A stretch of DNA of 64,000 bases from an uncultured Actinomycetes bacterium (lineage in GTDB: Bacteria; Actinomycetota; Thermoleophilia; Gaiellales; JAICJC01), in NCBI GenBank assembly GCA_963723785.1, contig CAVRSB010000024.1, forward strand, positions 3,288 to 67,287, read 5' to 3'. This document shows positions 6,819 to 23,362 of this stretch, piece by piece (position 1 is the stretch's first letter; each line of letters opens with the position of its first letter). Under the pieces are notes generated by a model. That model worked only from the letters and a program-made list of their open reading frames with translations, did no database searches and was not told where the DNA came from. The position numbers were made by a program, and so were the translations under genes.

Positions 6819-6851
6819 GTGAATAAAAGGTGCCTGGCACCTTTTATTCAC
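6819..6851. repeat. AT-rich palindrome family, copy 1: GTGAATAAAAGGTGCC-T-GGCACCTTTTATTCAC (perfect 16-nt arms)
   Basis: Read directly from the sequence. It lies 13 nt after the trxB stop and 10 nt before the next gene. Confidence 0.95.
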
Positions 6852-6860
6852 TTCGCTACA

Positions 6861-7337
6861 GTGGGAATCGTGCGGTACTTCATCTGCCCTAACTGTTCCA
6901 CGAGGGCACTCGACGATGATGGTCGGGCCGGCCTGACCCACCAGCCGGTGGGCTGTGCCAAGTGCGGCTTCGGCTACCTGTTCGAGATTCTCGAGGACTA
7001 CTTCCCGCCCGCCGGAGCGGGTCTGGTCACGTGTGACCGCGATGCGCGGGTGCTGTCGTGCGGCAACGGCGTGTTCGAGCTCACCGGCTACTCGGAGGGC
7101 GACGTGATGGGCAAGCCGCTGCGCGACGCGTTCGGCCTCAGCGGCTTTGCCGACGACACCGACCCGATCCCCGTGGTGCTGGAGTGGGGAGTGCGAAAGC
7201 TCGACCAGCACATGACGCTGCGACACCGCTCCGGGATCGCCAAGCGAGTGCGGGTCGACCTCTTCCCCGCCTACGACGAGGACGGCGGCCTGCTGGCGTC
7301 GCTGGCCTCAGACAACGCCCTCTCCACCAGCGCCTGA
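6861..7337 (+). CDS. Zinc-ribbon plus PAS-like sensor domain protein
   Basis: The N-terminus has CPNC..(20)..CAKC. The PAS-like block is GVFELTGYSEGDVMGKPLRDAF. The track ORF starts at 6819 inside the palindrome, so GTG at 6861 or 6870 is more plausible. Confidence 0.5.
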   Translation: MGIVRYFICPNCSTRALDDDGRAGLTHQPVGCAKCGFGYLFEILEDYFPPAGAGLVTCDRDARVLSCGNGVFELTGYSEGDVMGKPLRDAFGLSGFADDTDPIPVVLEWGVRKLDQHMTLRHRSGIAKRVRVDLFPAYDEDGGLLASLASDNALSTSA

Positions 7338-7594
7338 TACCGCTCCACCACGGCCAGCTGCCGTACCCGCCGGTCGAGCAGCCGCCGCTCCGCCAGCTCG
7401 TCGACACCGGCGAACACCCCCAGCGCCTCGAGCACAGCCGCGTCGCGCCCGCCCAGCTCGTCCCGGGCGCCGTGCTCGAACCGCGCCCAGGTGATGCGGG
7501 TGCGGGCGCCGTCGATCTCGTCTCGCAGGCGCTCAGCGTGACGGCAGATGCGATCGGCGTAGAGTTCAAGTTCGATGCGGTGCATGGCGGGCAT
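7271..7594 (-). CDS. Hypothetical helical protein, last gene of the nth operon
   Basis: Track ORF of 107 aa, Arg/Glu/Leu-rich, starting 24 nt after the nth stop. No recognisable domain. Confidence 0.35.
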
Positions 7595-7618
7595 GATCCC
7601 GCCACCGGCCGTCGCGGA

Positions 7619-8284
7619 TCAACCCACGCGGCGTCGCGACACCGTCACGTCTGCGAACGCGGACGGGCACAGGTCGGAGACGACGCAGCCGGCGCAGTCG
7701 GGCTTTCGCGCCCGGCACACCCGCCGACCGTGGAAGATGAGCACGTCGGAGACCTGCAGCCACCGCTCGCGCGGGTAGAGGCGCATCAACACTCGCTCGA
7801 CCTTGACCGGGTCGTGCAGTCGAGTCAGCCGCAGCCGCCGCGCCAAGCCGACCGACGTGGGTGTCGACGGCGATCCCCTCCCGCACTCCGAAGGCGTTGC
7901 CCGACACCACCGCCGCGGTCTTGCGGCCCACCCCGGGGAGCGTCACCAGCTCGGCGGTGGAGCGCGGCACCTCACCGCCGAACCGCTCCAGGATGGCCGC
8001 GCAGCACCCGCGAATCGACCGCGTCTTCTGGCGAAAGAAGCCGGTCGGCCGGATCAGCTCCTCCAGCTCCTGCTCGGTCAGCGCCAGGTAGTCCTGGGGC
8101 GTGCGGCAGCGGCGGAACAGCTCGGCGGTGACCAGGTTCACCCGCACGTCGGTGCACTGGGCCGAGAGGATGGTCGCCACCAGCAGATCGAGCGGGGACG
8201 AGTAGTCAGCGCGATGCCGGCGTCCGGATGCTCCGCCGCCAACCGGTCCAGGATCTCGACCGCGCGCTCGCTGCGGGCGCTCAT
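7619..8284 (-). CDS. nth: Endonuclease III (two apparent frameshifts)
   Basis: The HhH-GPD block is [15 protein letters not shown] and DTHV is present. The C-terminal 4Fe-4S motif is [20 protein letters not shown] at 8284 overlaps the upstream stop (ATGA). Confidence 0.85.
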
Positions 8285-20309: not shown

Positions 20310-20555
20310 CCGCACCGGCGGGCCAACATGACCACGCCCTGCTTGGTCTCGAGCAGCGCCTTCTCGCGCCGTCAGCGCGGCATGGCGATGCTCCAGCCGA
20401 GTCAGCTCGGCCCGCTGGCTCTTGAGCTCACGCGATACCTGCAGGTACTTCTGGACGGGGCCGACGTACAGGCCGATCATCACGATCGCGACCACCAGGG
20501 CGGCGATCCGGCCGAGCCGAAGGCCGCCGGTTGCACGGGTTCGTGAGCGTGGCAC
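20248..20555 (-). CDS. ftsB: Septum formation initiator FtsB/DivIC-like, frameshifted near the C5 run 20293-20297
   Basis: A single N-terminal TM helix (IAALVVAIVMIGLYV) is followed by a coiled coil (LKSQRAELTRLEHRHAAL). After frame correction the tail reads GWIFPGERPLVVKN. Confidence 0.6.
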
Positions 20556-20601
20556 ACCCGCACCTTCTCGGCCGCCGGGCGGATCCCTGCCCGGATCGCG
20601 C

Positions 20602-22018
20602 TCACTCGCGAACGACGTGCACCAGGATGTGGTTCGTGGCTCCCGGCGTGTTCAGATGCGTGCCGCCGGTCAGCACCACCGACTCGCCCGGGCCCACCAG
20701 GCCGCTCGCAACCGCGGCGTCCACCGTGCGCTTCCACAGCTCCTCCAGCGTCTCGGACGGCTCGATCACCAGCGGTACCACCGCCCAATCCAGTGCCAAC
20801 TGCTGCAGCACGCCGGGATCCGGCGAGGCGGCCAGAATCGGGCGCCGCGGCCGGTAGCGGGAGACCTGGCGAGCGGTCGATCCCGACTGGGTCGGCACCG
20901 CGATCGCCGAGGCCTCGAGATCCTCGGCGATGTCACAGGCGGCGTGCGACAGGATCGATCCCATCGAGCCCGAGGCCTCGCGACCGACCTGGTGATACGA
21001 CAGCGACGGCTCCACCGCCCGCACGATCCGGTTCATCATCGCCACCGCCTCCAGCGGGTAACGACCGGCGGCGGTCTCGCCCGAGAGCATCACCGCAGAT
21101 GTCCCGTCCAGCACCGCGTTGGCCACGTCGGACGCTTCCGCGCGGGTGGGCTCGGGCTGGTGCACCATCGACTCCAGCATCTGGGTGGCGGTGATGACCG
21201 TGCACCCGCTGTCTCGGGCCGACCGGATGATCAGCTTCTGCAGCAGCGGCACGTCCGGCGCGCCGATCTCGACGCCGAGATCGCCGCGCGCGACCATGAC
21301 CGCGTCGGAGACCTGCACGATCGCCTCCAGGTCGTCGATGGCCTCCGCCTTCTCGATCTTGGCGATCACGCGGGCAGGCGAGCCCGCTGCCGCGACCCGC
21401 TCGCACAGGTCGGCGACGTCGTCGGCGCGGCGCACAAACGAGAGGGCGACGTAGTCGACGCCGTTCTCCAGCGCGAATGCGAGGTCGTCGAGATCCTTGG
21501 GTGTGAGCGACGGAATCGGCAGGTGCGTGCCCGGCAGATTGACCCCCTTGCCGCTCGAGATCAGGCCGCCCACCTCGACTCTCGATTCCACCCGCGCGCC
21601 GGCGGTGTCCACCACCCGCAGGCGCACCAAGCCGTCGTTGATGAGGATCTCCGAGCCCGGTGACACGACCTCGCGGTAGCTGGGGGAAGGTGATCTCGAA
21701 GTCTCCAGGTTGGCCCTCGCCGGCCGGCGCCAGCATCATCGTGTCGCCCGGCTGCACGGTGATCGGCGCCTCCAACGTGCCGATCCTGATCTTGGGGCCC
21801 TGCAGGTCGGCGATCACCGCCAGCGGCCGGCCGATCAGGTCTTGGGTGCGGCGCACAGACTGGATCACCCGGCGGTGAGCGTCGTGGTCGCCGTGCGAGA
21901 AGTTCAGCCGGGCGGCATCCATGCCGGTCCAGGCCAGCTGCTCAATCATCTCCGGGGAATCCGTCGCCGGGCCGATCGTACAGACGATCTTGGTGTGCCT
22001 GGCGGTGGGCCTGTTCAC
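20602..22018 (-). CDS. pyk: Pyruvate kinase (one frameshift near 21670)
   Basis: The blocks are [48 protein letters not shown] and [13 protein letters not shown] at 22018 overlaps the eno stop (GTGA). Confidence 0.9.
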
Positions 22019-23300
22019 CGCCCCACGGCCGCGACGAACGCCTCCCGGCCGGGATAGTGCGCAGCCTCGCCCAGCTCTTCTTCGATCCGCAGCAGCTGGT
22101 TGTACTTGGCGACCCGATCGGTGCGGACGGGGCGCCGGTCTTGATCTGGCCGCAGCCGGTCGCGACCGCGAGGTCGGCGATGGTCACGTCCTCGGTCTCG
22201 CCCGAGCGGTGCGACATCACTGCGCTGTAGCCTGCGCCGTGGGCGAGCCGGATCGCATCAGCGTCTCGGTAAGCGTGCCGATCTGGTTCACCTTGACCAG
22301 GATGGAGTTGGCGCATCCCTCATCGATCCCGCGCTGCAGCCGCTCGACGTTGGTCACGAACAGATCGTCGCCGACCAGCTGGACGTCGCTCGCCAAGCCG
22401 CTCGGTCAGCAGCTCGCCAGCCGTCCCAGTCGTCCTCGGCCAGGCCGTCCTCGATCGACACGATCGGATACCGCTCCACCAGCTCGGCGTAGAAGTCCAC
22501 CATCCCCTGGCTCGGTGACGGTGCGCCCCTCGACCAGGTGTAGCTGCCGTCGCTGTAGAGCTCGGTCGACGCCGGATCCAGCGCGATCGCGATCTGCGTC
22601 GCGGTGCCCGGCGCGCCTCTGCCGCCTCCAGGATGGCCTCGATCGCCTCCTCGCGCGGAGGCCAGGTCGGGCGCGAATCCGCCTTCGTCGCCGACCGCCG
22701 TGGAAAGACCTCGACGCGTGCAGCAGCGTCTTGAGCGCGTGGAACGTCTCGACGCCGATCCGCAGCGCCTCCGAGAAGCTGTCCGCGCCCACCGGCACGA
22801 CCATGAACTCCTGCAGGTCGATGGTGTTGTCGGCGTGGGCGCCGCCGTTGATCACGTTCATCATCGGCACCGGCAGGGTGGTGGCGGTGGCGCCGCCGAG
22901 GTAGCGAAACAGCGACAGGCCCGATTCGGCTGCGGCCGCCTTGGCCACCGCCAGCGAGGTGCCGAGCACCGCGTTTGCGCCGAGATGGGCCTTGTTGGCG
23001 GTGCCGTCGAGCTCGATCATGGCCGAGTCGATCCCGCGCTGGTCAGCGGCGTCCATGCCGGTCGACCACCGTGGCGATCGACGAGTTCACATGCGAGACC
23101 GCCTGCAGAACGCCTTTGCCGCCGTAGCGGTTGGGATCGCCGTCGCGCAGCTCGACCGCTTCGAAGGCTCCGGTGGAGGCGCCGCTGGGAACAGCGGCTC
23201 GGGCATGTGCGCCCGACTCGAGTACGACCTCGACCTCGACCGTCGGGTTTCCCCGCGAATCCAGAATCTCACGGCCGGTAACTGAGGTGATCGAGCTCAT
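22015..23300 (-). CDS. eno: Enolase, at least three frameshifts
   Basis: The blocks are [47 protein letters not shown] and [21 protein letters not shown], recovered only after frame changes. Confidence 0.9.
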
Positions 23301-23331
23301 CGGGGCCGGATACTAACTGCCAGAGCGGGTG

Positions 23332-23362
23332 GTGAATAACGGTGCCTGGCACCGTTATTTAC
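23332..23362. repeat. AT-rich palindrome family, copy 3: GTGAATAACGGTGCC-T-GGCACCGTTATTTAC (15-nt arms)
   Basis: Read directly from the sequence. It lies between the mazG 3' end and the eno start, 31 nt upstream of the eno ATG at 23300. Confidence 0.9.

Follow-up and report, generated by a model that had tools for sequence, protein, structure and literature searches.

Why do the two arms of a short palindrome change together? The question is raised by a 64,000-nt stretch of DNA from an uncultured Actinomycetes bacterium (contig CAVRSB010000024.1, positions 3,288–67,287; hereafter, the window), which contains six copies of a palindrome of 31–35 bases, centered at positions 6835, 19417, 23347, 42133, 46117, and 63405. 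The first-pass annotation had noted symmetric changes on both arms of two copies, and had ascribed them to selection for a hairpin or cruciform, or for a dimeric protein site, as opposed to the independent decay of a dead repeat. Here, we report that the covariation is real and family-wide, and that the palindrome is a maintained hairpin repeat of the repetitive extragenic palindrome (REP)/TRIT kind, not a decaying one. It is probably a lineage-specific, REP/TRIT-like interspersed hairpin repeat of the bidirectional terminator type, residing in uncultured Gaiellales-like Actinomycetota.

The repeat unit has the layout TGAATAA–(spacer of 1–2 nt)–GGTGCC–W–GGCACC–(spacer′ of 1–2 nt)–TTATTCA, where W is A or T. 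A pattern scan of 185,579 species genomes, in which the spacer and the opposite arm were left free, yielded at least 112 loci. Among the matches listed, the unit is present in at least about 60 loci, from a dozen metagenome-assembled genomes (MAGs) of “uncultured Actinomycetes” or Gaiellales of 65–74% G+C, and the family statistics given below rest on approximately 80 copies from related uncultured actinobacterial (Gaiellales-like) loci, most copies being from these matches. The scan required a perfect core and one TTATT, and in most copies the unbiased parts are limited to the spacer and the opposite arm. L-numbers (e.g., L113, L203) denote sequence loci, in genome pieces of 8–21 kb. Orthologous regions of relatives were obtained via the proteins flanking the copies, and gene context was derived from a heuristic for open reading frames (ORFs) based on G+C at third positions, compared with the gene calls of the tool where these were present.

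The outer arm and the core are conserved across the approximately 80 copies, and the variation is concentrated in the spacer. At least seven complementary spacer forms were observed, namely C/G (the commonest), AA/TT, TT/AA, AT/AT, CC/GG, AC/GT, and T/A. The two spacers are complementary in 65 of 80 copies, compared to 18.3 expected by permutation of the right arms (maximum of 32 in 20,000 trials); with the C/G class excluded, the respective numbers are 33 of 48 and 8.5. A covariation test across copies, of the kind proposed in the first-pass annotation, came out positive: when the 38 copies whose spacers are 2 nt long were aligned without gaps, they scored 0.167 for covariation, compared to 0.083 after shuffling, with 0 of 500 shuffles reaching the observed value and slid-partner controls not exceeding 0.076. 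The two spacer columns (AU, 15; CG, 9; UA, 7; UG, 3 and CG, 12; UA, 12; AU, 8; UG, 3) each contain three Watson–Crick types plus G:U. The steps from AA/TT via AC/GT to CC/GG occur among the copies, as do the half-steps AC/GG and CC/GT. The spacer is 1 or 2 nt long, rarely 3, and its length shifts on both arms jointly. All discrete spacer classes with three or more copies are symmetric. Spacer composition follows the genomic G+C content, with CC/GG predominating in loci with G+C of at least 0.70.

The 13 conserved arm positions behave differently, with 31 single-arm changes and three compensated ones (0.12 expected), one of the latter being TGAATAG…CTATTCA, whose G:T intermediate was found in four other copies. 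Thus, the expectation that arm substitutions are paired holds for the spacer, but not for the conserved modules, where most changes are unpaired. The center base is W in 79 of 80 copies. The form AATTGG/CCAATT, initially taken for the consensus, is indeed the majority form within the window, whereas family-wide the commonest form is C/G, that of copy 3. A covariance-model search of 290 kb of loci picked independently of the pattern revealed near-perfect copies and only one decayed copy; given this and the 65 complementary spacers, the decay of a dead repeat is rejected. Symmetric changes in a palindrome alone are no proof of selection, as template switching and inheritance from symmetric founders also yield them; the covarying spacer notwithstanding, selection is therefore named here as the likely, rather than the established, cause of arm pairing.

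The copies keep close to gene 3′ ends, where they provide stop codons. The AT-rich outer arm TGAATAA contains the stop codons TGA and TAA in two reading frames and, as the unit is palindromic, they are supplied on both strands. Of 83 gene 3′ ends facing an arm, 19 use the arm TGA and 21 the arm TAA as the stop codon (40/83 together), while 24 more stop at most 18 nt upstream of the palindrome; the remainder are mostly doublets, and read-through was observed in 0 of 83 cases. The 40 resolved gene contexts comprise 18 convergent, 21 tandem, and 1 divergent arrangements. Doublets at a distance of 46–58 bp were found in eight loci (L016, L020, L033, L057, L067, L068, L092, and L102); each member is a full palindrome adjoining the end of its own gene, and the two often differ in the spacer variant.

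All six copies in the window are intergenic or overlap stop codons only. The full pattern with at most three mismatches has four matches in the window, compared to 0.00 in 100 shuffles, and the same numbers (4 and 0.00) were obtained for the outer arms (TGAATA-N12–24-TATTCA); with these two results, a chance origin of the six copies is rejected. The core alone has 18 strand-matches against 4.8 in shuffles. All copies fold as single strands into very stable hairpins (from −15 to −34 kcal/mol, z-scores from −4.4 to −9.5). They are as follows.

6819–6851, copy 1: gTGAATAAAAGGTGCC T GGCACCTTTTATTCAc, AA/TT variant, a perfect 16+1+16 palindrome with arms at 6819–6834 and 6836–6851; RNA fold −27.5 kcal/mol, z −9.5.
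19402–19433, copy 2: T/AA variant with one T missing in one arm, leaving a 1-nt bulge, between convergent genes; fold −18.0, z −5.1.
23332–23362 (with extension, 23327–23367), copy 3: TGAATAACGGTGCC T GGCACCGTTATTTA, C/G variant, between mazG and the enolase gene, both on the minus strand; fold −34.2, z −7.7.
42118–42148, copy 4: TT/AA variant, 16 nt past the stop of a LytR_cpsA_psr (LCP-family) gene; fold −18.1, z −4.4.
46102–46132, copy 5: TT/AA variant, perfect, between a DUF4352 gene (plus strand) and an Orn/DAP-decarboxylase gene (minus strand), convergent; fold −22.7, z −7.0.
63389–63421, copy 6: TT/AA variant with a single change left unpaired in the core (CGTGCC/GGCACC), located upstream of a PQQ-like propeller gene (minus strand); fold −15.4 (plus) and −18.0 (minus).

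The two copies that raised the question were described correctly as regards their pairing. In copy 1, AAAAGG faces CCTTTT and all 16 arm positions are complementary; it begins 13 nt past the stop of a trxB-like gene (TGA at 6804–6806) and its other end is separated by 18 nt from the GTG start codon (about 6870) of a PAS-domain gene. In copy 3, AACGG faces CCGTT, and two features can be added to the earlier description, one outer-arm G:T mismatch (TGAAT/ATTTA) and further pairing of the flanks (GGGTGG/CCACCC), which extends the arms to 20 nt. Copy 5 is the only fully perfect copy of the presumed consensus form in the window, and the TAA of its right arm is the stop codon of the decarboxylase gene. 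The arms of copy 2 supply the stops of both genes, TAA in the left arm and TGA (TCA on the plus strand) in the right. Copies 4 and 6 have single defects in one arm each, A>C and G>C, respectively. The right arm of copy 4 ends in TTCTTCA, the TCA of which terminates a convergent Zn-ribbon gene; the apparent A>C mismatch marks the point where palindrome and flanking gene sequence join, since deletions between direct repeats fuse the gene stop codon to the palindrome end. Such short deletions (TGA..TGA, TTCA..TTCA) joined the stop to the palindrome in three ortholog pairs. Copy 6 immediately adjoins the stop of a minus-strand gene (63421–63999). Core-like matches at 15441, 22964, and 52633 were rejected as family members, being coding sequence without arms; the first of these sites is kept as coding sequence in L203, L205, and L206.

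The asymmetric T/AA form of copy 2 was also observed at a non-orthologous site in another genome (L075, 6130–6160). It is either a real bulged intermediate between C/G and TT/AA, or a recurrent basecalling error beside CCWGG.

How might such a unit function? RNA transcribed from either strand would consist of an A-tract, a GC-rich stem with a CWG loop, and then UUAUUCA, a layout that would suit a bidirectional intrinsic-terminator-type or 3′-end-protecting hairpin. The spacer would be the base of the GC stem, free in sequence and length as long as pairing holds, and this could explain why exactly the spacer positions covary while the other modules stay conserved. As in a canonical intrinsic terminator, a GC-rich stem-loop is present at the gene 3′ end, the stem being formed by the spacer and GGUGC and the loop by CWG. 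The hairpin may thus act in RNA as a terminator or a stabilizer, its pairing kept by selection, possibly aided by hairpin-templated correction, and the near-identity of copies might come from duplicative spread or from a dedicated binding factor.

The closest published parallel, likened by description rather than by sequence comparison, is the mycobacterial TRIT (Tuberculosis Rho-independent terminator motif), a conserved, palindromic, bidirectional element centered approximately 8 nt inside the stop codon and reported only in Mycobacterium (Gardner et al., 2011; RNIE, PMC3152330). Both are conserved in sequence and palindromic, hence bidirectional, and both have of the order of 100–300 copies per genome. 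Each lies at gene termini in a narrow window overlapping the stop codon, at about −8 in TRIT and with the arm TGA or TAA serving 40 of 83 ends here. Each is confined to one actinobacterial lineage, and the function of each is unproven. They differ in sequence and in host (Mycobacterium and Gaiellales-like MAGs, respectively); further, in the family described here, the arms themselves supply the stop codons, and a defined spacer of 1–2 nt covaries and varies in length.

Several observations weigh against a terminator-type hairpin. Firstly, the tail UUAUUCA has four U in seven positions (or is UUUUAUUCA in the AA/TT variant), whereas the canonical U-tract comprises 7–9 nt. A consensus terminator and promoter scan does not flag the copies, a result that is uninformative rather than negative, since the tail pairs with the 5′ A-tract, so that the stem is extended through the A/U arms and no T-run is left. 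Secondly, TRITs of M. tuberculosis overlapped few mapped 3′ ends (bioRxiv 10.1101/2022.06.01.494293). Thirdly, the transition mismatches of the sense RNA in one-sided gene contexts, i.e., in copies faced by a gene end on a single side, are A.C in 10 and G.U in 2 cases (a small sample, n = 12, with heuristic contexts), while selection at the RNA level predicts the opposite bias. Fourthly, the intergenic gaps that contain copies 1 and 6 leave no room for a separate promoter other than one overlapping the palindrome. Fifthly, as ordinary terminators share no stem sequence, something further (spread or a factor) must account for the conserved core and arms. Finally, the near-invariant W center is not explained by a free loop and hints at sequence recognition.

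Family-wide, in the one-sided contexts, the G:T wobble is on the template strand more often than expected.

With regard to promoters, a −10-like TACAGT follows copy 1 (6859–6872), with the GTG of the PAS-domain gene 5 nt further on, and a −10-like TAGTAT, conserved in L113, is situated 9 nt before the enolase ATG (about 23300–23320, minus strand). In both tandem cases examined, the hexamer is within 7–15 nt of the copy. This sequence arrangement suggests near-leaderless promoters that overlap the 3′ side of the palindrome.

The alternative that survives best is a mobile, non-autonomous element of the REP/REPIN or miniature inverted-repeat transposable element (MITE) type. In that case, symmetric founder subfamilies would have been amplified, the apparent covariation would be inherited from the founders, and the spacer switches would be new insertions. 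We regard this as possible, though rather less than probable. Like the present family, the REP/REPIN sequences mobilized by REP-associated tyrosine transposases (RAYTs) are short (20–40 nt) extragenic palindromes, numerous and lineage-specific (Bertels and Rainey, 2011, PMC3116915; Nunvar et al., 2013, PMC3686654). In both cases, single units and closely spaced doublets lie at gene 3′ ends and in convergent intergenic regions, individual copies come and go among relatives, and the pairing of the hairpin is preserved. The symmetry of every discrete variant class with at least three copies and the doublets of differing variants also fit spread from founders. On the other hand, the conserved GT[AG]G head that precedes the imperfect REP palindrome, and gives it an orientation, is missing from the present family. 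The GTGA at the 5′ end of the unit belongs to the stem, with TCAC as its mirror image, and as a perfect palindrome, in which the two strands differ at the center W alone, the unit has no intrinsic orientation. Besides, the doublet members adjoin their own stop codons and form no joint larger hairpin. No copy pair brackets an ORF of 500–700 bp in the 8–21 kb locus pieces, and no transposase gene with copies on either side was observed in them; these pieces fall short of whole genomes, and no search aimed at the RAYT gene itself was made.

Orthologous sites provide evidence on both sides of this question. Copies are gained, lost, and remodeled between relatives. At the site of copy 5, no palindrome is present in L201, L202, or the close relative L200, in which the two convergent genes overlap by 8 nt; the site of copy 4 is empty in L202, while L200 has a perfect C/G copy there. 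L113 has a perfect C/G copy with a conserved flank at the site of copy 3, which is absent from more distant relatives. L075 has the appearance of an older unit to which a second was joined, and relatives without the family bear other palindromic repeats at the same sites. These presence/absence patterns are as expected of a mobile element. Yet the target-site duplication expected of a MITE was not found on comparison of the filled copy 5 site with the empty site of L200, nor of copy 4 with L202, although flank divergence of approximately 10% limits both comparisons. The trxB site (copy 1) likewise speaks against new insertion. Here the spacer is AA/TT in the window, L203, and L206, as well as in L204 and L205 with one unpaired change, whereas in a more distant clade (L207 and L208; TrxB 84% identical) it is CC/GG. 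The left and right boundaries of the palindrome are identical in the window and all of L203–L208, and hence two base pairs were exchanged in place rather than through a new insertion. Spacer composition following genomic G+C and the existence of half-step intermediates both fit in-place evolution, and each founder variant would still have required matched changes on both arms. A metagenome scan based on the Orn/DAP decarboxylase retrieved only distant homologs (at most 64% identity) with the palindrome in none of them, and so added no orthologous sites.

In-place change brings up mutational symmetry, the second alternative. Intrastrand template switching (quasi-palindrome correction) copies changes from one arm to the other, whatever the element does, and it is a documented process that creates and repairs perfect stems, with multi-base compensatory changes and inverted loops arising in one event (PMC8794818; PMC5941160). 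We consider it a rather unlikely explanation of the arm symmetry, even though the orthologous spacer switches resemble its products in their perfect arms and symmetric multi-base changes. At the sites of copies 1, 2, and 4 and in the L075/L105 pair, the spacer differs by 2–4 changes despite approximately 90% identical flanks, and at the copy 2 site the C/G form of L113 (flanks ~90% identical) and the T/AA form of the window share the right boundary, while the center base is flipped along with the spacer. One-step asymmetric intermediates are present as well. However, template switching is a mutational process rather than an element, and leaves unexplained the stop-codon placement and avoidance of divergent intergenic regions, as well as variation confined to the spacer beside 13 conserved arm positions, at which the 31 single-arm changes were not homogenized. 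Moreover, it is compatible with selection and need not replace it.

A further reading combines two claims, that a dedicated factor reads the folded hairpin via its conserved modules and that such a system is widespread across unrelated phyla; jointly, we give these only a small chance. If true, the recognition surface would comprise the TGAATAA arm together with the core GGTGCC-W-GGCACC and its constrained W center, the spacer would be the only stem segment not read, and the factor could be either a transposase acting on single-strand DNA or a lineage-specific protein of termination or RNA processing. The 13-nt core shared by unrelated phyla would then mark an undescribed hairpin–factor system.

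Among the matches listed, the identical 13-nt core with AATAA-type arms, in multiple copies and often as perfect palindromes, was indeed observed in unrelated phyla, with hosts including Desulfovibrio, Bryobacterales, Steroidobacteraceae and other Gammaproteobacteria, and Treponema MAGs (L007, L022, L004, L081, L026, L031, L056, L073, L101, L103, L108, L110, L085, L086); as the search pattern itself demanded the core and one TTATT, this similarity does not show relatedness.

The weakest alternative, an operator whose half-sites TGAATAA and GGTGCC are contacted by a dimeric regulator or nucleoid protein, would agree with the perfect two-fold symmetry of strongly conserved modules, the constrained center, and the nearby −10-like hexamers, but is highly improbable, as the distance between modules shifts by 1 nt per arm, which a rigid dimer would not tolerate, nothing would keep uncontacted spacer bases complementary, 18 of 40 sites are convergent without a promoter to regulate and only one is divergent, and half of the adjacent genes end inside the arm, so that neither the fixed half-site spacing nor the promoter-region position expected of such an operator was observed. 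Accordingly, of the two structures initially envisaged, the hairpin is favored: joint change of spacer length on both arms argues for a fold-back hairpin over a dimeric duplex site, and the location at gene 3′ ends, including convergent ones, speaks against a duplex protein site.

One more type of repeat invites comparison with the hairpin family. In Neisseria and Haemophilus, inverted pairs of DNA uptake sequences (DUS) and uptake signal sequences (USS), respectively, downstream of genes double as terminator-like hairpins; selection for DNA uptake acts on these sequences, and single ones are found within genes as well. The likeness lies in a conserved short sequence forming an inverted repeat downstream of genes, while the present family shows no sign of a link with uptake, and its arms are not dispersed singly through coding sequence.

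The palindrome family appears to be undescribed. A search of Rfam at the gathering score retrieved only a tRNA-Gln in the window, and at E ≤ 1 in three loci it produced two sub-threshold microRNA chance matches and no known RNA family; TRIT itself is not an Rfam family. A full-text literature search with the core and arm sequences returned only unrelated eukaryotic primers or constructs, and nothing was found in the literature on REP/RAYT in Actinobacteria or on Gaiellales repeats. Within the viral-contig collection scanned, the element is not phage-borne, the single match there being a chance one with only one arm, embedded in other sequence.

Canonical terminators are scarce in high-G+C Actinomycetota, and to our knowledge TRIT is the one conserved terminator-like motif known in this phylum, its role still being unproven. 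The hairpin family thus represents a second, independent actinobacterial lineage with a conserved palindrome on stop codons. Beyond the reported features of TRIT, it offers a clean covarying stem segment, natural length variants, and filled and empty orthologous sites, i.e., a natural mutant set for testing termination, 3′-end protection, insulation of convergent genes, or selfish spread. It is also relevant for annotation, since the palindrome affects stop codons and gene ends in many soil Gaiellales-like MAGs.

The window has a G+C content of approximately 69% and gene content of the actinobacterial type (mazG–enolase–DUF501, LCP, GT4), with the nearest named homologs in Gaiellales MAGs; its closest relatives are long-read soil MAGs. 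The trxB-like gene (5836–6806) is broken across two frames (5836–6630 and 6405–6806), and the enolase gene (22217–23312) across three. TrxB is intact in six relatives (323–324 aa; L203–L208), and the frameshifts are more likely to be indel errors of long-read assembly than signs of pseudogenes. Hence, single-base indels of the window, such as that in copy 2, need caution. The tRNA-Gln (anticodon TTG; 34444–34515, minus strand) is the sole Rfam or ARAGORN match in the window.

Relatives without the TGAATAA/GGTGCC family have other palindromic repeats at the same intergenic sites, with the core GGGGTC-W-GACCCC. Repeats of this type are located as follows.

L115, 15440–15537.
L118, 11050–11165.
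L119, 1125–1240.
L201, 9440–9560.

The repeat in L201 has the modules GTTTATTCAC...GTGAATAAA in reversed order. At the mazG–enolase site of L115 (11162–11192), there are bare cores without AT-rich arms (GGTGCCTGGCACC ggtac GGTGCCAGGCACC), and L201 contains hairpins with similar arms (TGCATAAAAGG) on different cores (6106–6223 and 6265–6304); hence, the arm and core modules are separable. Finally, tandem arrays with a period of approximately 228 bp and one palindrome per unit were observed in L089 (2003–2580) and L008 (4392–4970), where the palindrome is embedded in a longer conserved flank (GCCAGGGTGGATGAATAACC...CACGGCCGCAGGC).

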